From: Patescibacteria group bacterium
Lineage (GTDB): Bacteria; Patescibacteriota; Minisyncoccia; Phycocordibacterales; Zambryskibacteraceae
Length of the DNA stretch: 64,000 bases
Direction of reading: 5' to 3'
Assembly: GCA_004322205.1 (NCBI GenBank)
Contig: SCSN01000009.1
Coordinates: 29,836 to 93,835 of the forward strand
Part shown: in pieces, positions 25,220 to 64,000 of the stretch
Layout of the letters: each line of letters begins with the position of its first letter
How positions within the stretch are numbered: the stretch's first letter is position 1
The notes under the pieces: model-generated
Seen by the model: only the letters and a program-made list of their open reading frames with translations
Database searches by the model: none
Told to the model about the DNA's origin: nothing
Position numbers and translations under genes: made by a program

Positions 25220-25326
25220 TCAGCTTTTAGCTGTTAGGAAATACGAATAACGAATCAGGAATTATGAGTTAGGAAGGACAAGGCGCGGAGGCTTTTTTAA
25301 AGAACAAGCTCGACCTTTGGTCCTAG

Positions 25327-25800: not shown

Positions 25801-26906
25801 GGCTTCTTTGAGTTAAAACTAGCAATGAGACTCCTCAGGGCTGATATGAATTGATTCATATTAAACGGCCTCCCATTTACCTGTCCTGAACCTTGAGCTG
25901 CCGGCCTACTTGAACCGCCAGAGGAGCGTCGTAATTCCTGGGCCCCCATACCCGGAAGTGTTTGCAGGGCCTCTTGCCCAACCGCATATCTAGCACCTTT
26001 ATCCAGAAGTGATGATGATGTTTTCTTGAATAAATTTGGCAATCCTTCTTCTGCCAATTCATCAAATGGTGATTGTCCAGCTGCAGATTTGAAGAGTTTT
26101 CCACCTATCCCCGCAGAAACTCCGGTTAGTACAGCTTTAATTGGATCAATAGGTCTTCCCCCAGCATAATCTTGAATTACCGAGCCTGCGGCCGCTATTA
26201 CTCCCGAGGTCACAGCTTTTGTTCCAATTTGCACTGCGGATGCAGCACCGAAACTTACACTGGTTACGTATTCAGAAAACGAAGACCTTGGCGCAAACTG
26301 TTGCCAACCCACAACACTCGCAGCTTGATTTTCCCTAATATCAGAATACCAAGTACTGTAAAACGCTACTGTCCCCCCTATTAAAGCCAGGATACAAGCA
26401 GGGCACAAGCCATTCGGATCTTTGTTAACAATAGGGTTATTATCCGCATATGCATAGCTATTCAATGTCTGTGGATTTGAGAGAAAGAATGATTGATCCT
26501 GTCCGGTTAATTTCTTTAATCCCTGAGAATATCCAATCGCCAAGAAACTCGGATCCTGACTCACAAACCTCCCAATACGTCCATCATAGTATCTGGCATT
26601 GAGGTATGAGAGTGCGGTTTCAGTGTCATACTCCTGCCCTATGTATTTCCTTGATTCATTGTATGTTGTTTGTTTCTGATCTGTTCGGAGTTCACCGAAG
26701 GGGAAGTAGTCAATGAGTTCACTCACTGTGCTACTTGCGTCTGTAATTACCGTTGAACCTTGAAGGTGGTCAGTGTGCACGTAGTATGTACTCGTTCCTG
26801 TATTTGTTCCTCGTACTGAAGCTAGGAGGGTATTGTTAGCGTAAACGTGGTGGTCTCTCGTACTAGAATAATTAGTCATAAATAGTGCCTGACCCCATAA
26901 TCCCAT
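25797..26906 (-). CDS. orphan RHS C-terminal module (last YD repeats + DPNGL + CT domain)
   Basis: N-terminal about 150 aa are roughly 85-90% identical to the 3' core of the giant RHS gene (YYVHTDHLQGSTVITDASST...YYDGRIGRF); then DPNGL followed by the divergent CT CPACILALIGG... Confidence 0.7.
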   Translation of the reverse strand: MGLWGQALFMTNYSSTRDHHVYANNTLLASVRGTNTGTSTYYVHTDHLQGSTVITDASSTVSELIDYFPFGELRTDQKQTTYNESRKYIGQEYDTETALSYLNARYYDGRIGRFVSQDPSFLAIGYSQGLKKLTGQDQSFFLSNPQTLNSYAYADNNPIVNKDPNGLCPACILALIGGTVAFYSTWYSDIRENQAASVVGWQQFAPRSSFSEYVTSVSFGAASAVQIGTKAVTSGVIAAAGSVIQDYAGGRPIDPIKAVLTGVSAGIGGKLFKSAAGQSPFDELAEEGLPNLFKKTSSSLLDKGARYAVGQEALQTLPGMGAQELRRSSGGSSRPAAQGSGQVNGRPFNMNQFISALRSLIASFNSKKP

Positions 26907-26966
26907 GAATCCCCAGGACTGAAAAACCCAGCAAGAAATGTGGAGTTTGCGAAGTTTTCTGGTTTA

Positions 26967-27410
26967 TCAAACACTTTGAATATCGGGGTTAGCATCTATG
27001 AGAGATTTGGGTGCACGATAATAATACCAGTTTTTTTCTCGCGTTAAATTATGTTTTTGTTCGTGCGCCAACCCACAAATATTTTCTTTTATTTTTATGG
27101 TTTTTTCTTCGAAGAGTGAATCTGGTAAAACAAGTTTTTTTTCAACTTCTTTTTGTTCTTCTGAACTTAATTCGGTAAGAACAATGTCAATCGCACTTCT
27201 AACATCAAGATTGTTAGTATACTCATATATATCATCTTCCATTTCTACATCTTCCGTTATTTTTTCCCATCTGGGAATTAAATAGTTTAAGCCGTCCTTA
27301 ACTATAAAGTCGGCGTAACCTTCTAATCTTTTTTTTATTTTTTCTGTATGCGGGTAGGGCATAATTTGTATCTGACTTATAACTGGTTTTGAATTAATTG
27401 CTTCTCCCAA
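26967..27410 (-). CDS. candidate cognate immunity protein of the main RHS toxin
   Basis: 147-aa acidic ORF whose start overlaps the RHS stop by 17 nt (27394..27410). Confidence 0.45.
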   Translation of the reverse strand: MGEAINSKPVISQIQIMPYPHTEKIKKRLEGYADFIVKDGLNYLIPRWEKITEDVEMEDDIYEYTNNLDVRSAIDIVLTELSSEEQKEVEKKLVLPDSLFEEKTIKIKENICGLAHEQKHNLTREKNWYYYRAPKSLIDANPDIQSV

Positions 27411-33400: not shown

Positions 33401-34995
33401 ATTGCCCAGAGAACATCGATGAGAAGATCCCCGTTTACGTCTGCAAGTCTCACGCCATCGTCTTTCCCATCTTTCACAAAGTGCACTGGGAATTGCCAGC
33501 TTGAATCGTAACTCCAAGTGAGGTTGCCTCTATTATTGAGATAAATTTTTTGAGTAGAGGATGCAGAACCTTCGAGCTCTGACCAAATGAAATCGGCGAG
33601 CGCGTCCCCATTTACGTCTGCCATACGCAAACCTTTGTCGGTGCGCGAGGTTCCGTCCTTGATAAACCACATCGGAATGGTGCCGGAGGCGGCAGGATTC
33701 GGATCCCACCCATTAGCAGTCAAGGTATTTCCATAAGTAAAGGAGGTCTGCGGAAGAGTGATTTCCGTCCCCAAATCATCCTTGCCAGTTTCCACAATGC
33801 CTCCCAGCAGTTTTCTTTCTCCGTTTTCAGCCAAGGCAGAATTGAAGGTGTATTTTCTAACCCAAGAACCGTTAACTTTGGCTTGCACTTCGTTTATGAA
33901 ATACTTGGTAACAACTTCAAAGGCGGGCCGGCTTGAGGTGGCGTAGCCGGCAGCGCCGCGATTCTGGCGGAAGAATTCAAGCTCGAAGATACCGTCTGTT
34001 ACTCCGTTGCCGGTGTATTTGATTTTTGAGGGGTAAATGTATCCTGCTCCTTTGTAATACTCGTATTTTATGTAGTTATCATTTCTGTCTCGCACTTCCT
34101 CAAGCATCCAGCGATAGATCTTCGTTCCATCAGATGGATCATCCATTCTTGTGCTAGTGGAGTAGCCGAATTTGTATTGTGTCCCGCTTTTGTCTGTTAC
34201 AAGCCACGTATTACTAGAAAAGGTATATGCCCTGAACGCCCCATTTTCGTACTTCGCTCCGTAAGCCGTAGTTGTAGTAGAGGTTGTGGCAAGTTCCCCG
34301 TCAAAGGAAGAGGTAAAATAAGTTGAAGAATATAGATTGTCGGAGCCGGTGCGATTGAGACGCTCAATGTACGGAATATCCAAGTTCCAGCCGTAGCCGA
34401 ACCAGTTTACGTCGTCTGCCGTTTGATTGTTGTAGTAGAGGGTGGCGCTTGGAGTCAGACCGTTTCTGCCGGGCGACACAGTCAGTTTGTATTGATAATT
34501 GAACGAACCTGCATAGGAATCCAGTGTGAAAGCGATTCGCAGTTCTTCGTCTTTGCTCCGATCCCTAATCGGCAAATCAGAAGACTCGCCGAGAAGCGAC
34601 AAGATACCAGCTTCCCCTTCTCCAGCGGGCTCTTCATCTGTTTTCTGCTGGGGCGCTCCGTTCTGGTTTGTCTGCTCGCCCGCGACCTCGCCGGGCGGAG
34701 TACTGGGGTTGCCTGCGGCTTGCCCCGCCGATTCATTTTGATTTGCTTCTGTCGGCTTGTTCCCCGATATCCCGGGAGTAACAGAAAATTCAACATCAGC
34801 CGGACTCTCAACAGGGATATTTTGAAGAGCACCGCCGACATTCGGAGTATTCGGCTCTTGGTTCAGAGTCGCCGTCTCTTCCTGCGCGGAAACAAAGAGC
34901 GGCTGGAGGAAAAAAGAAAATACTAACGTCAAAGACGTTAGTATTTTCAAGCACTGCCGCACCTTGAGAAAATCAAAAGTACGCCTCGCCCTCAT
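27394..34995 (-). CDS. giant secreted RHS/Tc-toxin BC-like polymorphic toxin
   Basis: 2533 aa; signal peptide; Pro/Gln/Gly-rich linker; SpvB-like GYGWNLDIPYIERL segment; six or more DVNGD(G)xxD FG-GAP/VCBS-like repeats; tens of YD repeats; PIVNKDPQGLE core boundary; then an about 200-aa unique C-terminal domain. Confidence 0.9.
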   Translation of the reverse strand: MRARRTFDFLKVRQCLKILTSLTLVFSFFLQPLFVSAQEETATLNQEPNTPNVGGALQNIPVESPADVEFSVTPGISGNKPTEANQNESAGQAAGNPSTPPGEVAGEQTNQNGAPQQKTDEEPAGEGEAGILSLLGESSDLPIRDRSKDEELRIAFTLDSYAGSFNYQYKLTVSPGRNGLTPSATLYYNNQTADDVNWFGYGWNLDIPYIERLNRTGSDNLYSSTYFTSSFDGELATTSTTTTAYGAKYENGAFRAYTFSSNTWLVTDKSGTQYKFGYSTSTRMDDPSDGTKIYRWMLEEVRDRNDNYIKYEYYKGAGYIYPSKIKYTGNGVTDGIFELEFFRQNRGAAGYATSSRPAFEVVTKYFINEVQAKVNGSWVRKYTFNSALAENGERKLLGGIVETGKDDLGTEITLPQTSFTYGNTLTANGWDPNPAASGTIPMWFIKDGTSRTDKGLRMADVNGDALADFIWSELEGSASSTQKIYLNNRGNLTWSYDSSWQFPVHFVKDGKDDGVRLADVNGDLLIDVLWAIDAGSGSTTKKTYLNTGSGWSESSTWQPPEYFIAAEKDNGVRLGDVNGDGLVDILYSHATSTQQFNKIYMNNGAGWTESASWKNPMSFATDGITDDIQLLDVNADGLYDFLTSTTTHMNTGNGWKSQTGYTASVSMRVRYADVNGDNLTDMISSYVYNGNPPLTLRGTSKNTGKQWVEITDPSWDPPVDFANGFDQDEGVRMADVDGDAIPDILQSIYWSANSTQNTIRLANPSRTDQLIKIVTDKGATHDITYKQTPLYTASGGNLLNPKLPIILDTVSQITKSNGVNNTEAVSYTYSDGRFYFNTGRDRRLAGFASTTRSNDAGTKVKTYYHQGNTTDSSLGEFSDHVSKIGKTYRTEITDASNNIYSKKINKWENVGLANDRHYVKLTQTIDWAQDGDADSKHKAESYVYDDSAGNLSQKTLWGEVTASDDGTFTDAGTDKFTFNYTYATSSATSSVSVNLLSQEGMFDQSSNKVKETKLYYDTLSYGNVDKGNLTKQELWKTGSAYASSTKAYNSYGLVTTDTDPRGNNTTYVYDANNLYPATTTNAVSQNFGYQYDYSSGKVKQFTDPNNFVFQTTYDGLDRVTEEKQPSTSTSSTLETKTTFTYTDNTVPTVVKRSDYLDSSNIVDTYSYLDGFNRILQERKEAENTSEFVVKEYTYNNIGLLDKETLPYFAQGSSRSSTSTASKLEISYTYDPLERVTKITNAVGSTTNAYDDWVLTVTDARSKQKKLYKDAYDNLTKVDEINATSTYTTNYLYNGLGNLTKITDALGNVRNFTYDGLGRRTKAEDLHASADSTFASTTYVYDNAGNLVQRYDQKNQKVNFTYDGINRVLTEDFTGLTGVEVTYSYDGCTNGKGQLCAATSTGANTVYTYDPLGRVVTELKKINSNNLTTTYAYDRQGNIVNIVYPDLFESRYTYNNGGQVEKVEKKETAGGGFTDVVSDIDYAPTGQPSYIYYANNTESYFVYNPDELYRLQKKITTKVGGTGGEGFMGYASMEDYLRAEQSVVDENGNYILNQPFEKDDLRTSRSKTYLIGFDPQGNEIRQGQFYSGDIFYRDSAGNLSEIDTILIDGQNNWLMYKAPYKATLDKSPTNSPITFENGGQILSLTFPQAATSSATVQKELTDPMWAGKRVTYKNYLGSGADMVVSLGDVSLTKEFVIANSQTLQTFATGTDYEILFEITSSGDLDIEVEGKRLSQAGTIVSANPAKIIDDRGGVSYIRAPYIDDSDANRAHLRPISIRYEKIGTNIQVTKILPASYFKTTVFPVRTDLTLSPYSGSGDGGLAFIDDSAYGGDACACRPWSYIRATTSANYYGGDSYQGTARAYTDFGYYLGNSRQFYVFDTSSLGSNATVTSASLNIYVYAKQDGGNMAIVKSNQASTTLLQNSDYSRMTINNPDEGATRKNSADFLIGYNKWYLNATGTSWISPTSTTLIAIREADHDIASSTPPGFHGIHMYSSEQAGTSSDPYLEINYVNASSSDVLQDITYTYDAVGNITKIVDQSGTNSKKTLDLYYDDLNRLVIASSSVAIYGSNFRHDVMYNAIGNITRKSDKGNYTYTDSGYINPQAVTKVWNAPYTYDNNGNMLGIGGIATSTWNYNNWITKITKATSTMQMAYDHAGARVKYQVGTTATYYPNMYYDVSATTTRDKHIYSNGMLLASIRSSTTSTSTYYVHTDHLQGSTVITDASSTLNELIDYFPFGELRTDQKQTTYNESRKYIGQEYDTETALSYLNVRYYDGRIGRFASQDPVFLEIGSSLLERLSTQNLEIFLSNPQQMNSYAYANNNPIVNKDPQGLEVPPTPWGIIGMLLFMPRPLSPDPVYEPEAYAAASQPQIYFDAAPLATVGARPVPNSPKPNINFEGVWSKGSMANRAANATKHAADHAADFGTTNTKEYVESAREFVTDAISGKYPLRFDKTRGRINTYDTRTNSFASFSMNQNTGGVTMHTYFKPSSGASYSGWSNGLSLSASDVSSLQAQVIRLQQAAARFSRRFGRSN

Positions 34996-36722: not shown

Positions 36723-36906
36723 GGCCGCTCGGAAGAGATGTTCTTTGAGGTTCCGTCCGCCCGATTTACCGACGGCAACAATGTCAAATTCTTCTTCAAA
36801 AATCTTCGTTTCCTGGCTCTCCTTCCCTTTTTCTTTATTCTGCAGTATGATAGTTATATTCTAAGCTAATTAGTTAATAAAGCTAATTAGCTAACAAGCT
36901 AAGAGA

Positions 36907-39290: not shown

Positions 39291-40202
39291 ATGATTTATC
39301 GTCGGCGATACAGAGAAGCTCTCTGGGTTGACGCCGTCAATCCGACCCACCAGGAGTTGAACGGCTTGGCAGACGAACTGCGTTTCCATCCGGCGGTCGT
39401 AGAAGAGCTCGCCTCTCCATCGCTTAAGTCCCGAGTTGAACTCTACGACCAGTATCTCTTTCTTATCCTTCACTTCCCTGCCGTGAAGCTAAGCCACCGC
39501 GACAGCATTCAGGAAATAGACTTTGTTATCGGGCGGGATTTTGTCGTTACGGTACGCTATGACACAGTGGACGCCATTGACGCCTTCGGGAAGATTCTCG
39601 AGGTCAAAAGCATTCTCGACCGCGGCCCGCGCGAGCATCCGGCGGGCTATATTTTCTTTGGCATCACCCAGGAGATTTACCACTCGCTTTTAAGCGAACT
39701 TGAGTATGTCGGCAACTGGATTGCAAAAATTGAGGAAGGAATTTTTGCCGGACGCGAGCGGGAAATGGTCATGGCGCTATCGGAAGTCAGCCGGACTCTT
39801 CTCAATTTCAAAAAAGCCACGGACTTTCACAATGAAATCCTCACCTCTCTCCACGACCTCGGCAAAAAAGTTTTTGACGAGCATTTCTCGTACCACGTCG
39901 AACGCCTCCTTGACGAATATCATAAGGTTAGACACGTTCTGAACGGAGATATTGATTCGGTGGCAGAACTGCGTGAGACAAACGATTCTCTCCTCTCCAC
40001 CAAGCAAAATGAGGTTATGAAAGTTCTCACTATCGTGGCTTTCATTGCTCTTCCTCTTTCGCTTATAACTTCTCTGCTCCAGATTGACGCCGTTTCCAGG
40101 CCAATTATCGGGCGTCCGAATGACTTCTGGATTATTCTTGCCGCCCTGCTAGCTCTTGGGGTGCTTCTTTTCGCCTACTTTAAGCACAAAAAATGGCTTT
40201 AA
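39291..40202 (+). CDS. CorA-family divalent cation transporter (divergent pore motif)
   Basis: Cytoplasmic domain plus two C-terminal TM helices; ends ...YFKHKKWL like CorA; the canonical GMN is replaced (SLLQID). Confidence 0.55.
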   Translation: MIYRRRYREALWVDAVNPTHQELNGLADELRFHPAVVEELASPSLKSRVELYDQYLFLILHFPAVKLSHRDSIQEIDFVIGRDFVVTVRYDTVDAIDAFGKILEVKSILDRGPREHPAGYIFFGITQEIYHSLLSELEYVGNWIAKIEEGIFAGREREMVMALSEVSRTLLNFKKATDFHNEILTSLHDLGKKVFDEHFSYHVERLLDEYHKVRHVLNGDIDSVAELRETNDSLLSTKQNEVMKVLTIVAFIALPLSLITSLLQIDAVSRPIIGRPNDFWIILAALLALGVLLFAYFKHKKWL

Positions 40203-40237
40203 TCAGCTAACAAGCTAATTAGCTGGTTAGCTTTTTA

Positions 40238-41650
40238 ATGAAAATGCTAAGACTTACCAATACTCTCACTGGCAAAAAGGAGGAGTTCATACCGATAAAA
40301 GAAGGGACGGTTAGCATGTACCACTGCGGTCCGACAGTGCACAACTACGCTCACATTGGCAATCTGCGCGCCTACATTTTTGCCGACGTTTTGAGACGCA
40401 CCCTTGAGTTCCTGGGCCTAGACGTCCATCAGGTGATAAATGTCACTGACATCGGGCATCTGGTCAGTGAAACGGATGAAGGTGAAGACAAAATGACGCG
40501 GGCGCTTTCGCGTGAAGGTAAGCCCCTGACGCTTGCGGCAATGCGAGAGCTTGCTGATTTCTATTTTGAAGCCTTTAAGAATGATCTCATCGCTCTTAAC
40601 ATCAAGCTTCCGGAGCATTTCCCCTTTGCCAGCGATCATATTGCCGAAGAAGTCGCTCTGGTCCAGAAACTCATCGAGAAAAACCGCACCTACCAGACGA
40701 ACGACGGCATCTACTTTGATACTGCAAAAATGAAAGAATACGGCAAACTCGGCGGCCCTACTGCAGACAACAGTGAACACTCCCGAATACCTCCGAACCC
40801 TCAAAAAAAACATCCTCGCGACTTCGCTCTCTGGAAATTCTCCGCTCAAGGTGGGGAGCTTGGCTACGACGCGCCTTTTGGCAAAGGTTTTCCCGGCTGG
40901 CACATTGAGTGCTCCGCTATGTCAATGAAATATCTCGGCGAGACGTTTGACATTCACACCGGTGGCATTGACCACATTCCAGTTCACCACAACAACGAAA
41001 TCGCCCAGTCAGAAGCCGCAACCGGAAAACCTCTGGCGCGCTACTGGCTTCACAGTGCCTTTCTCACTGTTGAGAGCGGAAAAATGGCAAAGTCGGAAGA
41101 GAACTTCGTTCGACTTCAATCACTTATTGATCGCGGCATCCATCCACTCGCCTACCGATTCTTCATTCTTCAAGCTCATTACCACTCCCCGCTCATCTGG
41201 AGCTGGGAAGCTGTTGAAGCCGCCCAGAGTGGATTTGAATCTCTCGTTCTTCGGGTGGCAGATTTGCAGACGGAGGTGAAGAATGTTTCTCATCAGGCGC
41301 TTCCCACTGACCCAGACTTTTTTTTAGAAGCTATCACTGATGATTTGAATACTCCGCGGGCAATTGCACTACTGTCTTCTTTCCTAGAGGAAAAACTGCC
41401 GCCCAACGCCAAGCTCGCTACTCTCTACCACCTTGACGAAATTCTCGGCTTGCGGCTCAAAGAACTGGCAGAGAAAGTAAGAACTATCCCCTCTGAAATT
41501 CTTGCCGTCAAAAGAGAGAGAGATACACTCCGGCAAGGGAAAAAATTCCAAGAGGCTGACGCCCTCCGGGAAGAAATCAGCTCCCAATATCTTGTCCGCG
41601 ATCTCGAGAGTGGAACTGCAATCACCCGAAGACTTGACCCTTCTCTCTAG
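40238..41650 (+). CDS. cysS: cysteinyl-tRNA synthetase
   Basis: MYHCGPTVHNYAHIGN (HIGH) and KMAKS motifs; zinc-binding Cys. Confidence 0.92.
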   Translation: MKMLRLTNTLTGKKEEFIPIKEGTVSMYHCGPTVHNYAHIGNLRAYIFADVLRRTLEFLGLDVHQVINVTDIGHLVSETDEGEDKMTRALSREGKPLTLAAMRELADFYFEAFKNDLIALNIKLPEHFPFASDHIAEEVALVQKLIEKNRTYQTNDGIYFDTAKMKEYGKLGGPTADNSEHSRIPPNPQKKHPRDFALWKFSAQGGELGYDAPFGKGFPGWHIECSAMSMKYLGETFDIHTGGIDHIPVHHNNEIAQSEAATGKPLARYWLHSAFLTVESGKMAKSEENFVRLQSLIDRGIHPLAYRFFILQAHYHSPLIWSWEAVEAAQSGFESLVLRVADLQTEVKNVSHQALPTDPDFFLEAITDDLNTPRAIALLSSFLEEKLPPNAKLATLYHLDEILGLRLKELAEKVRTIPSEILAVKRERDTLRQGKKFQEADALREEISSQYLVRDLESGTAITRRLDPSL

Positions 41651-51200: not shown

Positions 51201-51734
51201 CTAGCCGAGCTGGGCTACTGTCTTGACAACCCGGAAGAGAAGCTCATCAGAGCAACGCCGCGGCTGATTGCCGTGCTCGCTCACGAAGACCGTGAACTTG
51301 AGATCGAGCTGTTCCCGGCTCAAGACGGCATGGGTGAGCAGACGTTCGTCGCACTCGTATAGGTTACGAGTTGTGCCATCCGCACAGAACATACCGCTGT
51401 AGTAAGACGTGGGCTCCCAGATTCTCCCCGCAAAGTACTGTTCAGTGTTGTTGTCGTGCGCTTCCACGAAAAAACGCCGCGCCGGCACCGACCTTCGACC
51501 GCGATGTGGCATTTTGCCCTCCGAGGAACTGTTTAGTTTCCAAGGAAAAGAATACAACTTTCCGCAGATTAGATCACAAATTGAAACTTGGTCGGAAGTG
51601 AGCGCAAAATCTGGGCGCGCCGAAGGCGCGCTGTATGGCGAGAGAATGAAATCCGTCTTGCGGGCGCGGGCGAATTCGGAGGGCGGGCGGAAAGCAAGAA
51701 ATGAGATCTTAATAGTTTCTTTTTTTGAATCCAA
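51201..51734 (-). CDS. hypothetical ORF whose 5' end is an inverted copy of the recombinase 3' end (possible rearrangement remnant)
   Basis: N-terminal about 45 aa (ISF...PPSEFARARKTDFILSPYSAPSARPDFALTSDQVSICD) are identical to the recombinase C-terminus; the remainder is unique. Confidence 0.3.
   Translation of the reverse strand: MDSKKETIKISFLAFRPPSEFARARKTDFILSPYSAPSARPDFALTSDQVSICDLICGKLYSFPWKLNSSSEGKMPHRGRRSVPARRFFVEAHDNNTEQYFAGRIWEPTSYYSGMFCADGTTRNLYECDERLLTHAVLSREQLDLKFTVFVSEHGNQPRRCSDELLFRVVKTVAQLG
51574..51708. repeat. inverted repeat copy 1 (about 130 bp)
   Basis: Reverse complement matches 53147..53272 except for a 9-bp indel. Confidence 0.8.
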
Positions 51735-51743
51735 AACCTATTT

Positions 51744-53288
51744 ATGAATAAACCAAAATATTTTCTCTATGCTCGCAAGAGCACCGAAGATGATGATAAA
51801 CAAGTGATGAGTATTCCGGCTCAACTTGTGGAGCTTCGTGAATTTGCGAGCAGAGAAAATATTGAAATTCTTGAGGAATTTCAAGAGTCGAAAAGCGCAA
51901 AGAGCCCGGGACGAGAAGTGTTCGGCGAAATGATGATGCGTATTGAAAAAATGAATGGTGTAGGCATTCTCGCGTGGCATCCTGACCGACTAGCGAGAAA
52001 TAGTATTGACGGAGGACGCATCATTTACGCCGTAGACACTTCTAAAATTGTCTCTTTGCGTTTTCCGACATTTTGGTTTGAACCCACACCGCAGGGGCTC
52101 TTTATGTTGCAAGTGGCGTTCGGACAGAGCAAATATTACTCCGACAATTTGAAGCAAAATGTCGAGCGAGGTATGCGCCAAAAATTGCGACGAGGAGAAT
52201 GGCTGACCCGCGCTCCATTCGGGTATGTGAACAATCCAACCACGCGCAATATCGAACCTGATCCGGTGAAATCTAAAATTATCGTGCGAGCGTTTGGTGA
52301 ATATGTTAAAGGAACACATACCCTCATTTCGCTGTCGCAATTTTTGGCTGACCACGGTGTTGCTCAAAAGTCCGGAACGCCACTTGGCAAAGCTTCCGTG
52401 AAAAGGATATTAACCAATCGTGCGTACTTGGGATTTACCAAACATCGTGAGGAGTATTTTCCCGGAAGCTTTGCGCCAATTCTTTCTCCGACACTATTTG
52501 AAGCTGTGCAAAAACAACTTTCCGTGCGAGCGCATCCGAGGCATAGCAAAATATCTCACAATTTTCCTTTCACCGGACTTTTTCGTTGTGGGGAATGTGG
52601 CTCGATGATAACCGCTCAATGGTGTACTGGAAAAATGGGCGGTCGCTATCGCTATTATCGTTGTACGAAAAAGAAAGGAAAATGTTGTCAAGGATATTTG
52701 CAGGAAGATGCGCTCGCATTCCAAGTTAAGGAACAGCTTCAATCAGTGTCGCTTCCCGAAGCGTGGGCAGATTATATGCTCAAAAAAGTGGAAGTTTTTG
52801 AGCATGACGAAATCCACGCTTCGGGAAATCGTCTCGGACAGATGAAGGAAGATTTGAAAACGCTTGAAGCTAAGCTCGACGCACTCGTGGATTTATACTT
52901 AAACCACGATATTGAGCGCGACATATATCTGACAAAAAAGGACGCGCTCATGCGTCAAAAAAGCTCGCTTCAAGCAAAATCTTCATCTGCCCGAGCCGAG
53001 AGAAAGAATTGGGTCGAACCCCTGCGGAAGTGGATTTTGGATTCAAAACGCGCGGGGTTTCTCGCTACGAGTGAAAATCTCCACGAGATGCGAGATTTTC
53101 TTCGTTCCTTCGGAACGAACCCCGCGCTGAAAGATAAAACTATTTCGATCTCATTTTGCCCGCCCTCCGAATTCGCCCGCGCCCGCAAGACGGATTTCAT
53201 TCTCTCGCCATACAGCGCGCCTTCGGCGCGCCCAGATTTTGCGCTCACTTCCGACCAAGTTTCAATTTGTGACCCTATCGGGATTTGA
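51744..53288 (+). CDS. large serine recombinase (resolvase N-domain + recombinase domain + zinc ribbon)
   Basis: YARKSTEDD catalytic-Ser N-terminus, DRLARN motif, CGECGSM...YYRC zinc ribbon, C-terminal coiled coil; 514 aa. Confidence 0.85.
   Translation: MNKPKYFLYARKSTEDDDKQVMSIPAQLVELREFASRENIEILEEFQESKSAKSPGREVFGEMMMRIEKMNGVGILAWHPDRLARNSIDGGRIIYAVDTSKIVSLRFPTFWFEPTPQGLFMLQVAFGQSKYYSDNLKQNVERGMRQKLRRGEWLTRAPFGYVNNPTTRNIEPDPVKSKIIVRAFGEYVKGTHTLISLSQFLADHGVAQKSGTPLGKASVKRILTNRAYLGFTKHREEYFPGSFAPILSPTLFEAVQKQLSVRAHPRHSKISHNFPFTGLFRCGECGSMITAQWCTGKMGGRYRYYRCTKKKGKCCQGYLQEDALAFQVKEQLQSVSLPEAWADYMLKKVEVFEHDEIHASGNRLGQMKEDLKTLEAKLDALVDLYLNHDIERDIYLTKKDALMRQKSSLQAKSSSARAERKNWVEPLRKWILDSKRAGFLATSENLHEMRDFLRSFGTNPALKDKTISISFCPPSEFARARKTDFILSPYSAPSARPDFALTSDQVSICDPIGI
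53147..53272. repeat. inverted repeat copy 2 (encodes the recombinase C-terminus, ends at the tRNA-Glu 3' end)
   Basis: See copy 1. Confidence 0.8.
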
Positions 53289-53344
53289 ACCCGAGTTTCC
53301 AGGATGAGAACCTGGCGTCCTAGACCGGGCTAGACGATAGGGCC
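53271..53344 (-). tRNA. tRNA-Glu (anticodon CUC)
   Basis: Minus-strand sequence GGCCCTATCGTCTAGCCCGGTCTAGGACGCCAGG-TTCTCAT-CCTGG...CGGGTTCAAATCCCGATAGGGTC folds as a cloverleaf; anticodon loop TTCTCAT; T-loop TTCAAAT; no encoded CCA. Confidence 0.8.
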
Positions 53345-56950: not shown

Positions 56951-57841
56951 TCATCGTTTCTCGATAATCCTCAATTTTGCGCTCCGGGCGCGGGGATTTG
57001 CTGCCATCTCCTCCTCCGATGCCGCTATGGGCTTTTTCGTCACAAGCTGCCCTTCATAAGCCGCGACTTTCCCCCGAAAGAAGCGCTTCACGATCCTGTC
57101 CTCCAAACTGTGGAAAGAAATGACCGCCATTCTCCCCTGCTTTGAGAGCCGCTCAAAGCCGGCGGCAATCCCCTCGGAAAGAGCTGTCAATTCATCGTTT
57201 ACGGCTATACGGAGGGCTTGAAAGGTTCTGGTGGCGGGGTGGATTCTTCCGTGGCGATAGCTCGCGGGAACGGCTCCTGCAATAATTTCCGCGAGCTCAT
57301 CCGCCTTCTGAATCCGCTCTTCCTTTCGAACCGAGGCGATTTTTGCTGCGATTCTCCCCGCATAGCGCTCCTCACCATAACGCCGGATGATGTCGCGAAG
57401 CTCCTCTTTACTTGTGAAGTTCACAAGCTCATAGGCAGTGAGGAAGCTTTGGCGCGGAGGAGCGAAGGTCATGATGAGCGGCTCGGAGCGGCGAAATGAG
57501 AATCCTCTTCCCGACTCTTCAATCTGGAAACTGGACATTCCCAGATCAAAAAGAATTTTATCGACATTGTGCACTCCAAGTCCTGCGAGAATGGCGTCGA
57601 GATTTCGGAAATTGTCTTCGACAAAAGTGACGTCGCATTCAACTTCCGCGAGACGCGCCCGTGAGCGCTTGATTGCCTCGGCATCAGCATCAATGCCTAC
57701 GATTTTGACGCCGCGCCCGAACATCTCCGCCACTCGCGCACTGTGCCCGCCGTCGCCCAGCGTCGCGTCAACAAAGATGTCGCCGCTGTCGATATCAAGC
57801 CCCGCTATCGCTTCCTGTAAAAGAACACTGACATGCGTCAT
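56951..57841 (-). CDS. rsmH: 16S rRNA (cytosine1402-N4)-methyltransferase
   Basis: MTHVSVLLQEAIAGLDI...FVDATLGDGGHS SAM-binding signature. Confidence 0.92.
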   Translation of the reverse strand: MTHVSVLLQEAIAGLDIDSGDIFVDATLGDGGHSARVAEMFGRGVKIVGIDADAEAIKRSRARLAEVECDVTFVEDNFRNLDAILAGLGVHNVDKILFDLGMSSFQIEESGRGFSFRRSEPLIMTFAPPRQSFLTAYELVNFTSKEELRDIIRRYGEERYAGRIAAKIASVRKEERIQKADELAEIIAGAVPASYRHGRIHPATRTFQALRIAVNDELTALSEGIAAGFERLSKQGRMAVISFHSLEDRIVKRFFRGKVAAYEGQLVTKKPIAASEEEMAANPRARSAKLRIIEKR

Positions 57842-57934
57842 ACGAATCAGCGAATAAATGCAAATCTACGAATAGTTACGAATATTCGTATTGATTTGTA
57901 TAATTCGTAACATTCGCATATTCGTATGTTCCGA

Positions 57935-58372
57935 CTAAAATACTCCGATTTCGCCGAGTTTCTCCGCCATGGCGTCGGCGCTTTTCTCGATCCGCTTTTT
58001 ATACTCGGACCAAGCCCTGTCGTTCCAGATCTCAATGCGATCGTAGACGCCGGCAAAGATTACCTTGCTCTTGAGATTGGCGTAGTCGCGCAAGAATTCC
58101 GGGATGAGAATCCGACCGATGGAATCCACTTCGACTTCGACCGCTCCGGCGAGCATGAAACGGCCAAAAGCACGGGTATCGCTTTTGGCAAGCGAGAGAG
58201 CGCCCAATTTGCGGGCAATCACCTCCCAGGCCTTGAGTGGGTAGAGAAGGAGGGAATTATCGAGGCCGTGAGTCACCACAACTTTTTTGCCGAGAGCTTG
58301 ACGAAATTTCGACGGCAGCGAGACCCGTTTCTTTTCGTCAACAGTGTGCGTGTATTCTCCGATAAATGCCAC
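57935..58372 (-). CDS. mraZ: transcriptional regulator MraZ (GTG start)
   Basis: (M)AFIGEYTHTVDEKKRVSLPSKFR with duplicated SpoVT/AbrB-like halves. Confidence 0.9.
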   Translation of the reverse strand: MAFIGEYTHTVDEKKRVSLPSKFRQALGKKVVVTHGLDNSLLLYPLKAWEVIARKLGALSLAKSDTRAFGRFMLAGAVEVEVDSIGRILIPEFLRDYANLKSKVIFAGVYDRIEIWNDRAWSEYKKRIEKSADAMAEKLGEIGVF

Positions 58373-58384
58373 GATAGATTTTCT

Positions 58385-58599
58385 TGAACCTTGAGCGAAG
58401 CAGTTAGAAAATCATCACCCAGCACTTATTTACGAAGACTGACAATAAGATGTAAAATAAAGGGTATTGACCCTTTATTTCAACTTCGCTCGGACATCGT
58501 GAGAGATTATTCTCAACATGTCTCTCGCTCGTTGAAATAAAACGGCAGCAGGTTTTACTTTCCTAAACTTCAGTCTCCGCGATAAGTGCTGGGTGGTGA
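58385..58599. repeat. ORF-less copy of the IR-bracketed element (MITE-like) in the mraZ leader
   Basis: 18-bp inverted repeat TCATCACCCAGCACTTAT (58412..58429) / ATAAGTGCTGGGTGGTGA (58582..58599) enclosing about 150 bp of hairpin-rich non-coding DNA; the same arms bracket the GIY-YIG gene at 60.7 kb. Confidence 0.55.
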
Positions 58600-58792
58600 A
58601 AAACATGTTTTCCGCCAACTAACGGATCATTGTTTTTCTACCACTTTTTCCCACTCACTTTAAATCGTATAACACTTATTCCCACTGCGTGAAACCTTTT
58701 ATCCACACTTTTGGTGAACTATGGTACACCTTCTCACAAAAAACCCGACTCGAAGTCAGAGCTTCTCGTCGGGGCCGCATCGGCGTACAACC

Positions 58793-59197
58793 TTACCGTT
58801 TGTTGACAAGATACAGAGCCAGAGCGGCGAGAGCGACGCCAAGCCATTGATGCGGTGTAAGCCGCACACCGAAGAACACCGTACCCAGAACCATCGCCGC
58901 CACCGGAAAGAAACCGGTGATGAGAATGATCGCGGCTGTGATATTCTCGTTTGGCGCGTGATTCAGCGCAACATTGAAGAACAGCAAGCCGGTAACACCA
59001 AGCACGGCTCCCAGAACCTCGTTTCTTGCAGACAGTCCGGTAATCTCTGCTGTCGTCAGGACAAACTGCCCTCTGCCAAAGAAAAGCAGAGAGACAGTCA
59101 AAATGATGTAGCACATGGTATTTAGAAAAATATTCACTCCAACGCCATGTACCACCACAACCCTGCGGCTGTAGAAGCCAAACAGGGACCACGTCAT
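58793..59197 (-). CDS. small EamA/DMT-family membrane protein
   Basis: 134 aa with four TM helices, EamA-like half-transporter pattern. Confidence 0.45.
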   Translation of the reverse strand: MTWSLFGFYSRRVVVVHGVGVNIFLNTMCYIILTVSLLFFGRGQFVLTTAEITGLSARNEVLGAVLGVTGLLFFNVALNHAPNENITAAIILITGFFPVAAMVLGTVFFGVRLTPHQWLGVALAALALYLVNKR

Positions 59198-59205
59198 ATT
59201 CTACT

Positions 59206-60684
59206 TTACTCGCCTTTGCGAGGCCGTAAGGTCGGAAAGAGAATCACTTCCTTGATATTTTTTACATCAGTCAGAAGCATTGCCAGGCGGTCAATGCCGA
59301 TGCCGATGCCGCCGTTTGGCGGCATGCCGTACTCCATCGCCTCGAGATATTCTTTATCGCTTGGAGAAATTTCCGCCTCTCCTGCTTGTCCCTTTTTATC
59401 CTCTTCAAGATAGCGTTCGCGCTGATCGAGCGGATTGTTTGTCTCGGAAAAAGCATTGACTAGCTCCAAACCGCCGATTACAAGCTGAAATCGGTCAATA
59501 AGCGATGGATCGTCTTCTTTTCTTTTGGCGAACGGGTTGGTGGCAACCGAAAAGTCAACGACAAAAGTCGGTTGAATAAGTTTCGGCCGCACCACTTTTT
59601 TGTAAATATTGTCTAGAATTTTTTCGAGCGCTTCCTCGTCCACCACTTCTATTCCCAGCTGGCGAGCGCGAACTGCCACTTCGCTTCGCGTGATTGATTC
59701 AGGGTGTATGATAAGTGCCCAGCGCCGCAGCAAATCATAAAATGTAACGACGCTGAATTTTTTGCCGAAATCTATTTCCTTGCCGCCGTAGATAATTTTT
59801 GTCTTGCCAAAAAGTTTTTTCACCACCTGTCTGAAAAGTTTCTCAATGAAATCCCGCTGGCTTTTGGCATCGGCATAGGCTTCGTTGGACTCAAGCATGG
59901 TAAATTCCGGGTTGTGCAAATGGTCAATGCCTTCGTTTCTAAAACGCCGCCCCAGCTCATAAACTTTTGCAAAGCCGCCGGCCAGAAGCTCTTTGAGATA
60001 AAGCTCTTGAGCCGTGGGCAAATAAAAATCCGCTTCAAGAGCGTTGTGGCGTGTGACAAAGGGCCTGGCCGTCGCTCCGCCGGCAAGCGGCTGGAGCTCC
60101 GGCAGTTCAACCTCCAAGTATCCAGCGGCATTGTAAAACCCCCGAATTTCCTCAATCATCCGAATCCGCAGGAGAAAGCGTTCTTTAACCCCGGGATTCA
60201 TAAGAATATCTAGATAACGCCGACGGAAGCGCTCCTCTACGTCCTGAAGCCCGTGCCATTTCTCCGGCAGAGGCCGCAGAGACTTGGCAAGCATCCGCCA
60301 AGAGTGAACAAGGATTGTTTTTTCCTTGCGCTTAGTGAGAAAGAGGTTACCTCTGACTTCTATGAAATCACCGACGTCAACCGTTTCACCGAACAGCAGA
60401 AAATCTTCGTTGGTTACCTTTTCACCTCGTTTGAGAGCTCCTTGAAACTTCTCCGTATCGTCAAAAAAATGGAAAAAAATGAGTCCGCCCTGCGCTCGCA
60501 ATGACATAACGCGCCCGACAAGAGAAATTGCCTTTTTCGATTGGGAGAGCCTGCCGAAATTTTTCACAACCTCGGCGAGCGTATAGTCTTGTCTTGCAGA
60601 AACAGGGTAAGGGTTAATACCCTTTTCTTGCAGGAGTTTGAGTTTTTGGAGCCGCGTATTTCTTATTTCATCTAGTGAAGCCAT
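59206..60684 (-). CDS. lysS: lysyl-tRNA synthetase (class II)
   Basis: OB-fold N-domain; motif 2 FRNEG; GGATARPF; motif 3 GIGIDRLAMLL. Confidence 0.92.
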   Translation of the reverse strand: MASLDEIRNTRLQKLKLLQEKGINPYPVSARQDYTLAEVVKNFGRLSQSKKAISLVGRVMSLRAQGGLIFFHFFDDTEKFQGALKRGEKVTNEDFLLFGETVDVGDFIEVRGNLFLTKRKEKTILVHSWRMLAKSLRPLPEKWHGLQDVEERFRRRYLDILMNPGVKERFLLRIRMIEEIRGFYNAAGYLEVELPELQPLAGGATARPFVTRHNALEADFYLPTAQELYLKELLAGGFAKVYELGRRFRNEGIDHLHNPEFTMLESNEAYADAKSQRDFIEKLFRQVVKKLFGKTKIIYGGKEIDFGKKFSVVTFYDLLRRWALIIHPESITRSEVAVRARQLGIEVVDEEALEKILDNIYKKVVRPKLIQPTFVVDFSVATNPFAKRKEDDPSLIDRFQLVIGGLELVNAFSETNNPLDQRERYLEEDKKGQAGEAEISPSDKEYLEAMEYGMPPNGGIGIGIDRLAMLLTDVKNIKEVILFPTLRPRKGE

Positions 60685-60692
60685 GATAGATT

Positions 60693-61017
60693 TTCTTGAG
60701 CAAAGTGATTAGAAAATCATCACCCAGCACTTACAACAGAATCTTTTATCCTTTGCTTTAATCTGGATCTCGCTTGGTCGTAATCTTTCAACTTTCTCTC
60801 TCGCCATCTAGCATCGCTTTCAGATAAATATTCTTCGTAGTATATCAACTCCCAATTCCTTCCGTGCTCCTTAGCTCGGCGGCGGAGATTATCAGTATAG
60901 CCATAATATAGCTCACGCCTGCCATACTTATACTTCAGGCAGTAAACATAATACATGTAAGTGCTGGGTTGTAGAGATTAAATAAAAACTGCGTTTTTAT
61001 TTAATCTCTACAACCTT
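60693..61017 (-). mobile_element. candidate IR-flanked GIY-YIG mini-element
   Basis: CCCAGCACTTAC immediately 5' of the ATG and GTAAGTGCTGGG forming the last four codons; the same arms plus a shared about 60-nt leader recur upstream of mraZ. Confidence 0.4.
60720..60956 (-). CDS. small GIY-YIG nuclease-family protein
   Basis: 78 aa; YYVYCLKY...GYTDNLRRRAKEH pattern (GIY ... YIG, R, E). Confidence 0.7.
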   Translation of the reverse strand: MYYVYCLKYKYGRRELYYGYTDNLRRRAKEHGRNWELIYYEEYLSESDARWRERKLKDYDQARSRLKQRIKDSVVSAG

Positions 61018-61461
61018 ATACGTCATTGTACCAGAGGGTGTGGAGAATGAGAATGTTTCCCCTTTTTTCTTGCCGAGAACCGCATGACCGAAGGGAGACC
61101 GGACCGAGACTTTTCCGTTTGCCATGTCGGCTTCCTCGGTGCCAACAATGGTGAGTTTCTTTTTTTCTTTGTCGCTGTCTTTGACAACAGTGACAACAGA
61201 GCCGATCGTTACCGAGTCGGTAGCATGAGATGAGACAATGGTTGCCGACTTCAAAATGTTCTCGAGCTTGGTAATACGCTCTTCGGTGCTCGCCTGCAGG
61301 TCGCGCGCTTCGTGATACTCAGCATTTTCAGCAAGGTCGCCCAATCCTTTGGCGTACTCCAAACTCTCCGCCACTTCCTTACGTTTGACGGTTTTGAGAA
61401 ACTGGAGTTCTTTTTGGAACTCCTCGTATTTTTCTGGGGTCAAGTACTCGTGTTCCTGCAT
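60997..61461 (-). CDS. greA: transcription elongation factor GreA
   Basis: MQEHEYLTPEKYEEFQKELQFL N-terminal coiled coil plus FKBP-like C-domain; the ORF is open to 61521, start chosen by homology; promoter TTGACA-N16-TACAAT at about 61471..61500. Confidence 0.85.
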   Translation of the reverse strand: MQEHEYLTPEKYEEFQKELQFLKTVKRKEVAESLEYAKGLGDLAENAEYHEARDLQASTEERITKLENILKSATIVSSHATDSVTIGSVVTVVKDSDKEKKKLTIVGTEEADMANGKVSVRSPFGHAVLGKKKGETFSFSTPSGTMTYKVVEIK

Positions 61462-61589
61462 AAGAATGAAAGACAATTGTACACCCCGCGCCGGAGCTGT
61501 CAATGAAAATAAGACCCGCAAGCCAACTCTGGAAAAGCTGTGGGTATTTTGGGGAAAAAGTTGCTTGACAACCGCGGTAGCTTTGAGAG

Positions 61590-62140: not shown

Positions 62141-62335
62141 CCTGAAATCTGATAAAGAACCTCGCCCCAAGGGACGAGGTATTAGGAGCCCCTTGAGGCG
62201 AACCAGGGGGGTTCTTTGTTGCAGAAGTGCGAGCTCCGCTCGCGACAGATTATTGCGCGGCCATTTATCCCCGCCGCAAGCGGACGGGATGTTCTGGCCG
62301 CTTGCAATAAGCTAACAAGCTAATCAACTAATAAG

Positions 62336-64000
62336 CTATCTAACATATTCCGGCGTATTGACATACATCCACTCCAAAAGTTCTCTTATGACTAATGTTG
62401 CACCGACCTGATTGTAACGGGAACCCCGTTCCATAAGGACAGCAAAGGCGTATTTGGGATTATCGTATGGAAAATAGCCGATGCTCCAAGAATTCACGAG
62501 TTCCTTTGAGACACCGAGTTCAGCGGTGCCGGTCTTTGCCGCCACCGCAATGCCGGGCATGGAGAGTCCGGCGGCGGTGCCGTCAGTCACGGCCAGACGC
62601 AATCCTTCACGAATAATTTTGAAATACTCATCGCTAAACGGCAGTTTCGGCGCATCGGGTAACGTTTTTTCCTCTCGCTTGAGAATTGTTAGCGAGAGTA
62701 AGTATCCGCCATTGGCAATCGCCGCCATCGCTCGGGCCTGCTGAAGCGGCGTAACCTGAAAACCGTATTGACCAATTGAAGTGTTGTAGGTGTCGCCTAG
62801 GCGCCACGGGTCGCCGTTGAAGGTTTTTTCTTTCCATTCCTTGCTTGGCACAAGACCACCTTCTTCTCCTTCCAAATCAACATCTGTCGGTGAACCAAAA
62901 CCAAACGATGAAAGGTATGAGTGGATTTTTTCTATGCCAAGCCCGCGTTGATCGCCGAAGCCGCCGCCCACCGTAAAAAAGTAAACGTTTGAGGAAACAG
63001 CAAGCGCCTGACGCAGATCAACCCAGCCGTGAGCCTTCCAGTCTTTGAAGACGCTTTTTTTTGTCGGGTCATAAGGATTAGGCAACGAGATCGAGCCGGT
63101 GCTTAAAATTTTCTCCTCCGGTGAAATAATTCCCTCTTCAAGCACTCCCATGGCGATGTAGGGTTTGACTGTTGATCCAGGGATATAGAGACCGGAGACA
63201 GCACGATTGAGAAACGGATTGTTTTTCTGGTTTAGTAATTTCTGAATGTGCTCCTTATCCTTCCCTTGGGTCATGACATCGGACTCAAATTCTGGAAAAC
63301 TCACCAGCGCGAGCAATTCCCCCGTTTCAACATCCGCAATAACCGCGCCACCGCCGCTGAAGCCGTACTGCCGCGCCGTTTCACCCATAAGCGAGTAAAG
63401 TTTCTCGGAAACTCTGGCGTCAATGGCAAGCGTCAGATTCTCACCGTCGCGCGGCGGTCGCAGAAGATTTTCCGACTGCACCTCTCCGACCGCGTCCGTC
63501 TCGGTAATCTTTATGCCGTTCCGTCCCGAGAGCTCTTCGTCATAGCGGGATTCAACACCGCCGCGGCCAAGATATTTCTCCTCATAGTACACGCCAGAAG
63601 CGTCTTTTGAAGGGTATTTGAGAAAGCCAAGAACGTGAGCAACTCCGGAAACGGCGGCGTAGCGGCGCAGCGAGAACTCGTCATCGGGATTTATTGCATT
63701 GCCGGCAAGAAGCGTGCCTCGGCGGTCAAAAATAAGCCCGCGATTGGCAAAGATAGTAGTATGCTTGAGATTGTTCCCTTCGGAGCGGATAGCGAAAGAA
63801 CGTCCTTCAAGAACTTGAAGCTCCGTGAGCTTGCCAAGAATTACAAACCCGATAAGAATGAAAACGAGAATTAAAAACAGAAAAATTTTTCGTTCGACTG
63901 GTTTCTCGATTCTGCCCTCAAACTGATGAGTGTCAAAACGCGGCAGATTCGAAGAATCAAGAAAAATTTCATCGGGATCAATCTCCCGACGGGCGGCAGG
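62336..64000 (-). CDS. mrdA: class B penicillin-binding protein PBP2 (MrdA-like), 5' end beyond the window
   Basis: Reading frame is open from 62336 to the window edge (TM helix RKIFLFLILVFILIGFVIL near 63900); SxxK (GSTVKP), SxN and KTGTA motifs. Confidence 0.8.
   Translation of the reverse strand, partial: PAARREIDPDEIFLDSSNLPRFDTHQFEGRIEKPVERKIFLFLILVFILIGFVILGKLTELQVLEGRSFAIRSEGNNLKHTTIFANRGLIFDRRGTLLAGNAINPDDEFSLRRYAAVSGVAHVLGFLKYPSKDASGVYYEEKYLGRGGVESRYDEELSGRNGIKITETDAVGEVQSENLLRPPRDGENLTLAIDARVSEKLYSLMGETARQYGFSGGGAVIADVETGELLALVSFPEFESDVMTQGKDKEHIQKLLNQKNNPFLNRAVSGLYIPGSTVKPYIAMGVLEEGIISPEEKILSTGSISLPNPYDPTKKSVFKDWKAHGWVDLRQALAVSSNVYFFTVGGGFGDQRGLGIEKIHSYLSSFGFGSPTDVDLEGEEGGLVPSKEWKEKTFNGDPWRLGDTYNTSIGQYGFQVTPLQQARAMAAIANGGYLLSLTILKREEKTLPDAPKLPFSDEYFKIIREGLRLAVTDGTAAGLSMPGIAVAAKTGTAELGVSKELVNSWSIGYFPYDNPKYAFAVLMERGSRYNQVGATLVIRELLEWMYVNTPEYVR

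Follow-up and report, generated by a model that had tools for sequence, protein, structure and literature searches.

In a 64-kb stretch of DNA from a Patescibacteria bacterium (assembly GCA_004322205.1, contig SCSN01000009.1; the whole stretch is called the window below), we analyzed an intergenic element at 58373-58613, directly upstream of mraZ. On balance, it is probably a non-autonomous copy of a system in which a hairpin repeat is partnered with a nuclease, and which also carries the translation-start region of the downstream gene. A nuclease-bearing copy lies upstream of lysS, 2.3 kb from the gene-less mraZ copy. This reading draws on direct observations of anatomy, conservation, covariation, joint variation of repeat arms and nuclease, presence and absence in relatives, and one flank that resembles a target duplication. 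From these we infer the molecule that is recognized (DNA or RNA), its cleavage and the mechanism of copying. All genes in this part of the window are encoded on the minus strand:

57935-58372, minus strand: mraZ, with a GTG start at 58370-58372
58793-59197, minus strand: EamA-type gene
59206-60684, minus strand: lysS, with an ATG start at 60682-60684
60720-60956, minus strand: GIY-YIG gene, 78 amino acids (aa)
60997-61521, minus strand: greA

The mraZ copy has two arms, TCATCACCCAGCACTTAT at 58412-58429 and ATAAGTGCTGGGTGGTGA at 58582-58599, with a gap of 152 nt. The same arms recur at the lysS locus (60717-60734 and 60957-60969), where they exactly bracket the open reading frame (ORF) of the 78-aa GIY-YIG protein. 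A 12-mer from the arms, AAGTGCTGGGTG, has three exact occurrences and one with a single mismatch in the 64 kb, and these are confined to the four arm positions; by our own arithmetic, about 0.008 occurrences of any exact 12-mer are expected by chance in 128 kb. Between arm and gene, the mraZ and lysS leaders have in common 25 identical nt (TAAGTGCTGGGTGATGATTTTCTAA) and 15 identical nt (TCAAGAAAATCTATC) abutting the start codons, and differ by a 7-nt indel. The near-identical stretch measures about 50-57 nt, and the tail that runs into the mraZ GTG 45 nt. In the mraZ direction the element strand folds at -90.9 kcal/mol (z = -10). These data bear out what a previous sequence-only reading had described, namely an ORF-less copy of the inverted-repeat (IR) pair of the lysS/GIY-YIG locus, arms that enclose about 150 bp of non-coding DNA (152 nt, with three inner hairpins and no ORF), and a leader common to mraZ and lysS that reaches both start codons. 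Its limits of 58385-58620 stopped slightly short at the start-codon end; the true extent is 58373 to about 58613.

Across copies the spacing of the arms varies freely. What looked like an IR pair thus forms the stem of a single conserved hairpin, M (ACCCAGCACTTA...TAAGTGCTGGGTG), with a variable loop. The parts of M in the window are:

58412-58429, minus strand: 3' arm (R) of M in the mraZ copy, gene strand ATAAGTGCTGGGTGATGA
58430-58581, minus strand: M loop ("cargo") of the mraZ copy, 152 nt, with an 11-bp extension of the M stem and the three inner hairpins; no ORF and no GIY-YIG remnant
58582-58599, minus strand: 5' arm (L) of M in the mraZ copy, gene strand TCACCACCCAGCACTTAT
60717-60734, minus strand: 3' arm (R) of M at the lysS locus, in which the GIY-YIG ORF ends (last residues SAG, then the stop codon)
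60957-60969, minus strand: 5' arm (L) of M at the lysS locus, directly before the GIY-YIG ATG

Among 13 distinct copies found outside the window, the arms are 15, 16, 26, 26, 69-73, 98 or 128 nt apart when no ORF is present, and about 228-247 nt apart when the GIY-YIG ORF is. The shortest copies are plain hairpins with loops of 4-7 nt, such as CCCAGCACTTATTTTAG-acac-CTAAAATAAGTGCTGGG in locus L028. The stem is conserved in the sequence itself, beyond mere pairing, and U-rich tracts lie on both sides of it. A decayed GIY-YIG gene was sought in the 152-nt insert with tblastn, blastn and a family hidden Markov model (HMM) against the six-frame translation of 58373-58625, and no match was found. 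The insert is unlike the ORF, and the mraZ copy is therefore not a deletion derivative of the nuclease-bearing one. Part of this cargo is common to the orthologous element of a relative (L045).

What had appeared as a shared leader folds into another conserved hairpin, B, which extends at its base to the start codon downstream:

58373-58417, minus strand: hairpin B of the mraZ copy, UGAUGAUUUUCU / AGAAAAUC(U)AUC, with a base pair that adjoins the mraZ GTG
60685-60722, minus strand: hairpin B of the lysS copy, abutting the lysS ATG

The consensus of B is UGAUGAUUUUCU ... AGAAAAUC(U)AUCA, and its final pair uses the first base of the start codon, as a U-G pair when the start is GTG. In an alignment of 12 distinct copies, 96.4% of the cells were paired, with two-sided changes in three pairs (A-U to G-C, U-A to C-G, and A-U to U-A). 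None of 500 shuffles attained the observed pairing score, and pairing dropped to 34-58% when the partner was shifted by 1-3 columns. The only B hairpins in the window are the two linked to the element. B directly abuts the start codon (0 nt) in 10 of 14 distinct loci and lies 3 nt away in one more, which fits the earlier suggestion that the element supplies a translation-initiation region. The genes that follow it, which that reading had proposed to look up for any further copies, are mraZ (twice), lysS, yebC, pilC (twice), rseP, mreB, rpsS, recR and rplK.

In most copies M is preceded by a third hairpin, A, with an A-rich 5' strand that contains the stop codon of the upstream gene, a T-rich 3' strand, and GAGC..GC in the loop:

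58598-58613, minus strand: remnant of hairpin A in the mraZ copy, GGAAAACAUGUUUUUC; the L045 ortholog has the same stem and a 17-nt loop
60967-61015, minus strand: hairpin A of the lysS copy; its 23-bp stem is perfect, and the final greA codons with their stop make up the 5' half

Compensation in A was seen by eye only (AGAATCATA/TATGATTCT in L010 versus AGAAAAATA/TATTTTTC in L028), as an alignment of eight sequences was too gappy and the formal pair count was dropped. In minimal copies the helices of A, M and B follow one another without spacers. The element of the mraZ copy is placed between the mraZ start and a set of repeats:

58625-58720, minus strand: MraZ-box-like repeats AAAGTGTGGATAA, AGTGGGAATAAGTG and AGTGGGAAAAAGTGG, kept in relatives with or without the element

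By comparison with published MraZ sites, these repeats are putative MraZ operators. At gene starts across the window, Shine-Dalgarno motifs are nearly absent and a TATAAT-like box lies 8-30 nt before many start codons, which suggests that the source organism uses short-leader or leaderless mRNAs. This organism is present in the sequencing runs SRR8426596 and SRR8426592.

The gene in the M loop of the lysS copy encodes a product that matches Pfam PF01541 (GIY-YIG) over residues 1-62; an NCBIfam search with the 78-aa protein gave no match. The protein consists of one domain, a bare GIY-YIG fold (AlphaFold2 (AF2) model, pLDDT 86.5). The nearest solved proteins are UPF0213 BH0048 and EF2693 (1zg2, 1ywl; E = 1.4e-8, 6.4e-8), followed by Slx1, a structure-selective nuclease of branched DNA, on whose catalytic domains the AF2 model superposes at 1.4-1.9 Å. 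The GIY-YIG catalytic residues are kept: in the family alignment Y5, Y17, G19, R27 and E41 are invariant and H31 is nearly so. Close homologs number 135, with lengths of 75-100 aa, and come from Parcubacteria, Omnitrophota and unnamed metagenomic bins; a profile search at E <= 1e-10 returned 1,962 clusters (50% identity). Some homologs have extensions at the N terminus (..ELTPHPAM) or the C terminus (..SAG, ..GCGV, ..PISG), and these are translated hairpin arms. The start of the GIY-YIG ORF is buried in the stem, which would limit translation of the nuclease. One contig with an element-borne gene (L012) also has a second GIY-YIG gene of 84 aa (1266-1520) without ACCCAG-type arms, so not every mini GIY-YIG gene belongs to the hairpin system.

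The similarity extends beyond the two sites in the window: 13 distinct copies lie in other genomes, some found by DNA patterns and some by way of protein homologs. A scan of species-representative genomes for TAAGTGCTGGGTGRTGAWWWW gave nine matches, with about nine expected by chance; four of them are clearly the same element and come from genomes labelled Zambryskibacteria, Saccharibacteria and "bacterium". In metagenomes, a scan for TAAGTGCTGGGTGRTGATT returned 14 loci, and in 13 of them the left arm matches as well (metagenome bins carry the taxon labels under which they were deposited). The evidence that counts lies outside the scanned stretch and in the protein-derived loci. In all seven loci that were reached via protein homologs, and are thus free of DNA-pattern bias, the inverted repeat brackets the ORF exactly. 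Homologs with about 67% identity keep the arm ACCCAGCACTTA, and those with about 45-57% have other arms: ACCCCACACCCAGTA or ACCCCACACCCAGCA (L019, L047), ACCCCGTCACTAAC.., or ACCCAGAAATGGGTT (L051). The arm in L021 is ACCCCGTCACTAACATTCAAGT. In three genomes, that of the window and those of L021 and L047, an ORF-less and an ORF-bearing hairpin have lineage-specific arms in common:

L021: ORF-less hairpin at 6357-6490, ORF-bearing hairpin at 9967-10270
L047: ORF-less hairpin at 6920-6983, ORF-bearing hairpin at 10013-10280

The L047 organism has Wza/Wzi genes and uses Shine-Dalgarno sequences, and the frame shared by its two copies consists of A, M, B and a Shine-Dalgarno leader up to the ATG. 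The exact bracketing in seven of seven loci and the tracking of nuclease lineage by the arms indicate that nuclease and hairpin belong together. Two scans of viral contigs gave chance-like single arms or nothing, and tblastn against plasmids gave no match. Separately, L021 contains a perfect 21-bp inverted repeat (GCCCAGCACCACTTTTTGGTTT / AAACCAAAAAGTGGTGCTGGGC; 13189-13429, 199 nt between the arms) in a 6-kb stretch without called genes; a relation to the M-hairpin family is possible, as is a position inside an rRNA region.

Comparison with relatives pointed to both gain and loss. The MraZ proteins closest to that of the window (81% identical) come from Zambryskibacteria. In relatives L042-L044 (MraZ 81% identical) greA and lysS are separated by 53 nt with a diverged B-like sequence and without M or the nuclease gene; their mraZ leader bears no relation to the element and is preceded by the same MraZ-box-like repeats. 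In L045 and L046 (MraZ 79% identical) an unrelated 39-nt spacer without M or a GIY-YIG gene separates greA from lysS, and mraZ is preceded by an orthologous A-M-B element with a shorter loop of 69-71 nt. At an orthologous pilT-pilC junction (PilC 57% and PilT 63% identical) the loop holds the ORF in L008, versus an empty 26-nt loop in L026. On a Kaiserbacteria-labelled contig (L051, 5960-6345) an arm-ORF-arm unit ends 1 nt before tRNA-Val(GAC) and lies between 11-nt direct repeats that correspond to the 5' end of the tRNA (GGGCGATTAGC); in L052 the upstream copy of this repeat is decaying. The flank in L051 resembles a target duplication, in this one copy.

We propose that A-M-B would constitute a three-hairpin intergenic cassette partnered with a miniature single-domain GIY-YIG nuclease. 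The M stem (ACCCAGCACTTA / TAAGTGCTGGGTG) would be the cognate site of the nuclease, most likely recognized as single-stranded DNA (ssDNA) or as an extruded branched structure, and the M loop would accept a few nucleotides, small structured modules or the nuclease gene itself. New copies, and the uniformity of existing ones, could result from cleavage initiated by the nuclease and subsequent copying or repair with another copy as template, much as in homing or in REPINs, and gene-less copies would be served in trans by a single nuclease gene. Compact genomes have no spare spacer, so the cassette would occupy all the space between the stop codon of one gene and the start codon of the next, with B doubling as the start region of the latter; it would persist inside operons because it fills this gap and supplies that start region. 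We also put forward, tentatively and as a possibility short of probable, a broader class of portable "stop-to-start" cassettes. In such a class a three-hairpin DNA/RNA module would take the place of the entire spacer, bring the start region of the downstream gene, and be propagated and homogenized by a structure- or ssDNA-specific GIY-YIG nuclease of 75-100 aa whose gene is nested in its loop; it would be widespread (~2,000 clusters at 50% identity) in the Candidate Phyla Radiation (CPR) and other uncultivated phyla, with a hairpin specificity for each lineage.

Several observations weigh against a cassette partnered with a nuclease. The copy number is low, with two copies in 64 kb here (the count at the source covers the 64-kb window) and 0-1 per 16-20 kb in other loci. 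The DNA scans required 17-21 exact bases, and conservation inside that stretch is by construction. No target-site duplication was found at the window copies, nor in the comparison of a filled (L045) with an empty (L042) mraZ locus. All copies are co-oriented with both flanking genes. The non-Watson-Crick cells in B are mostly G-T on the sense (gene) strand (6 vs 1), and at the pilT-pilC junction the element is about 85% identical versus about 63% for the flanking coding DNA. The co-orientation, the position of B at the start codon, the sense-strand G-T pairs and the high conservation at pilT-pilC suggest a host function, possibly at the RNA level.

These features would be in keeping with A-M-B as a cis-acting mRNA module of the host, for processing, stability or translation control, in which the GIY-YIG gene is a homing-type lodger of the M loop; we regard this as rather unlikely, and it is the alternative that survives best. 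Its setting would be polycistronic mRNA in organisms with almost no Shine-Dalgarno sequences, and the invasion would resemble that of endonuclease ORFs in intron loops. The near absence of Shine-Dalgarno motifs from the window genome, the compensatory changes in B, the pairing of B with the first start-codon base and the presence or absence of the ORF at pilT-pilC, as in homing, are all consistent with it. A minimal copy could also act as a switch: as RNA, a long rod that frees the start (-48.3 kcal/mol) is preferred to the three-hairpin form that hides it (-42.7 kcal/mol) because the loops of A and B are complementary. Folded with DNA parameters, the minimal copy has its energy optimum in the three-hairpin form, a point in favor of the nuclease-partnered cassette. 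The sequence of the M stem also tracks the nuclease lineage, including in ORF-less copies of the same genome, which is unexpected if the nuclease only came along. In close relatives these genes are without the element, and it is therefore dispensable for their expression. Moreover, no Rfam family matches, and the 78-aa protein is without the separate DNA-binding domain of known free-standing homing enzymes. A partner nuclease and a host RNA function can both be partly true.

Improbable, in our view, is a punctuation cassette, i.e. a terminator (A/M) followed by a promoter and leader (B), spread by ordinary recombination without a dedicated enzyme and with the GIY-YIG gene incidental. The U-rich tracts beside M, a 5' half of B that often reads TTTTTATAGT and resembles a -10 box, a promoter-like TTGACA-N-TATAGT after the arm in L021, and the many window genes with -10-like boxes close to their start codons would fit such a cassette. 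A consensus scan, however, found no promoter in either B of the window, where TCTAAC and TCTAAT make poor -10 boxes, and no T run directly follows A or M. The exact bracketing of the ORF in seven of seven loci and the co-variation of arms and protein would also be left unexplained.

The element had been called MITE-like, after miniature inverted-repeat transposable elements (MITEs), and in the usual sense this name does not hold. As a classical MITE it would be a deletion derivative of a transposon with terminal inverted repeats, with the GIY-YIG protein as transposase and cut-and-paste movement that leaves a target-site duplication. Inverted repeats at the ends, the existence of both ORF-less and ORF-bearing versions, and the 11-nt direct repeat around the distant copy in L051 are features of this kind. 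But the 152-nt insert is unlike the ORF in DNA and protein, loops shrink to 4-7 nt so that the "terminal repeats" form one hairpin, the window copies are without flanking direct repeats, and the conserved hairpins A and B extend beyond the arms. We know of no prokaryotic transposase of the GIY-YIG type, and consider this explanation very unlikely. Scarcely credible is a gene-specific regulatory leader (riboswitch or attenuator) common to mraZ and lysS, for which the roughly 50-57 near-identical nt directly before two start codons would speak; a conserved regulatory leader had also been suggested earlier. The mraZ leader is unrelated in a relative whose MraZ is 81% identical, as is the spacer ahead of lysS in another. 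Elsewhere the hairpin is found in front of rpsS, mreB, pilC, recR, yebC, rseP and rplK, and Rfam gives no match. The relatives' leaders and the varied downstream genes refute such a gene-specific leader.

In the Rfam searches, the window gave at threshold only a tRNA elsewhere, 58300-58800 gave nothing at E <= 10, and minimal copies gave only sub-threshold look-alikes of miR-430 and mir-302, because they have AAGUGCU in common. Other identities were considered and rejected. A CIRCE/HrcA operator (AGCACT...AGTGCT core, grpE neighbor) was ruled out by the arm spacing of 4 to about 230 nt and the unrelated downstream genes. GUGAUGA was also weighed as part of a hammerhead or C/D box; it matches no model and just forms the foot of B. 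In the window copies, a consensus scan of B for a sigma-70 promoter found none.

Among known systems, the closest are the Ssn proteins, single-domain GIY-YIG nucleases of 94 aa that cut ssDNA beside cognate hairpin repeats (SRM; NTS in Neisseria) (PMC11893778). Members of this class belong to the CDD clade cd10448 (GIY-YIG_unchar_3) and cleave ssDNA only, in a site-specific way (PMC11893778). Their repeats lie on both sides of the nuclease gene and also in the vicinity of further genes (Chenal et al. 2025, PMC11893778). Ssn still cuts a hairpin assembled from two unlinked strands (PMC11893778), which would leave room for a loop as large as an entire gene. The protein described here is likewise a monomer-sized single domain of <100 aa (78 aa, within the Ssn class limit of <150 aa), and its gene is bracketed by inverted-repeat DNA that also occurs outside it and next to genes. 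The repeat is oriented, has a conserved flank (TGATGA / TCATCA here versus GTCAT in NTS), and changes in sequence together with the nuclease. Complete small hairpins flank the gene in Ssn, whereas here the gene lies inside the loop of one hairpin and its flanks are the two halves of that hairpin. Further differences from Ssn are the two extra conserved hairpins (A and B), a cassette that spans stop to start and carries the downstream start region, hosts among CPR/Patescibacteria and further lineages without cultivated members, and a protein whose closest relatives of solved structure are UPF0213 and Slx1. The likeness is weakened on other counts, and with it the case for a partner nuclease. 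SRM and REP repeats occur in hundreds of copies, unlike the low numbers here; the SRM consensus HGTCWYN(0-2)YYVSBRHN(0-5)WNVSBRGN(0-2)RNCYNB has no match in the window, and none was found beside the GIY-YIG genes of L003, L008, L012, L016, L019 and L021. The cassette appears to resemble an Ssn nuclease with its hairpin repeats while being distinct, undescribed and present in many uncultivated bacteria (CPR and other); in the searchable literature we found no description of the element in CPR bacteria.

In REPIN/RAYT systems (PMC3116915, PMC3337134), REP doublets are mobilized by a single-copy HUH transposase related to IS200/IS605. The present element similarly forms a hairpin from a doublet of inverted units with a variable spacer, has ORF-less, non-autonomous extragenic copies in the same genome, and is accompanied by one protein gene flanked by the same repeats. 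Long-term, mostly vertical inheritance with occasional gain and loss is another likeness. It differs in that the gene encodes a GIY-YIG protein and not an HUH Y1 transposase, in its far fewer copies, in the extra hairpins and in abutting start codons. Free-standing GIY-YIG homing endonucleases of phages (T4 seg/mob, I-TevI) have a separate DNA-binding domain and long asymmetric duplex sites. As with homing endonuclease genes, a small nuclease ORF is present or absent at a conserved intergenic site (pilT-pilC) and its start is buried in a stem. Unlike them, the 78-aa protein is a catalytic domain only and its site would be a hairpin with many ORF-less copies.

If the partnership holds, the principle of a tiny GIY-YIG nuclease with a cognate hairpin would extend to the CPR in a novel arrangement, where the hairpin encloses the gene and the cassette takes up everything between stop and start codons. 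The partnership would also provide natural enzyme/site pairs with new specificities, e.g. AAGTGCTGGGTG, as possible site-specific ssDNA tools. The system offers a concrete, testable case of a repeat that resides in operons of highly compact genomes and leaves them intact by bringing along the start region for the gene that follows; such genes include essential ones (mraZ and the division/cell-wall cluster, lysS, rpsS, mreB). For annotation, it accounts for recurrent mini-ORFs called "GIY-YIG nuclease family protein" and for their odd terminal extensions, which are translated arms.

The cargo of the mraZ copy contains a nested module, of which a second copy was found at the start of the window:

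58453-58537, minus strand: nested module, made up of a long hairpin whose internal loops read GAGCGAGAG / CCGAGCGAAG and of a terminator-like hairpin (58453-58482)
1-75, plus strand: second copy of the module, truncated at the window start and immediately followed by the grpE ATG (76)

The mraZ-cargo and grpE-leader copies match over 22 nt at 95% (E = 5.5e-5). Searches with GrpE, DnaK and DnaJ for the missing part of the grpE-leader copy yielded just one contig, of 4.6 kb, which begins within grpE. The module of about 85 nt is missing from the L045 ortholog, relative to which the window loop has gained it, and no additional copies were found in the fetched loci or viral contigs. Its motif GAGCGAAG is complementary to the loops of both B hairpins in the window (CUUCGCUC, CUUUGCUC) and also occurs in hairpin-A loops of copies from other genomes. 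The module could be a small RNA or a second mobile hairpin.

Other repeats were seen in the window. Beside the murE-like gene of the division/cell-wall cluster, an ORF at 51744-53288 (plus strand) encodes a large serine recombinase of 514 aa (Resolvase, Recombinase and Zn-ribbon). It is flanked by 122-nt inverted repeats that are 98% complementary (51567-51688 and 53158-53279), one of which overlaps a tRNA gene (53270-53344, minus strand); this could be an element that inverts or has integrated. Between mraZ and rsmH, the 93-nt spacer (57839-57928) is a dense palindrome of CGAATA/TATTCG-like units. A partly palindromic intergenic repeat family, TAATYAGCTAACAAGCTAA, occurs at 36884-36902, 40199-40238 and 62305-62351, just upstream of gene starts (e.g. 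the ATG at 40238), and similar AAGCTT units are present in the greA-lysS spacer of L045. At 23407-23706 / 28636-28935 and 25103-28312 there are direct repeats of 300 nt (80% identical), 195 nt and 105 nt. They are repeated protein-coding segments that belong to, or surround, an ORF of 2,533 aa (27394-34995, minus strand) and its neighbors.

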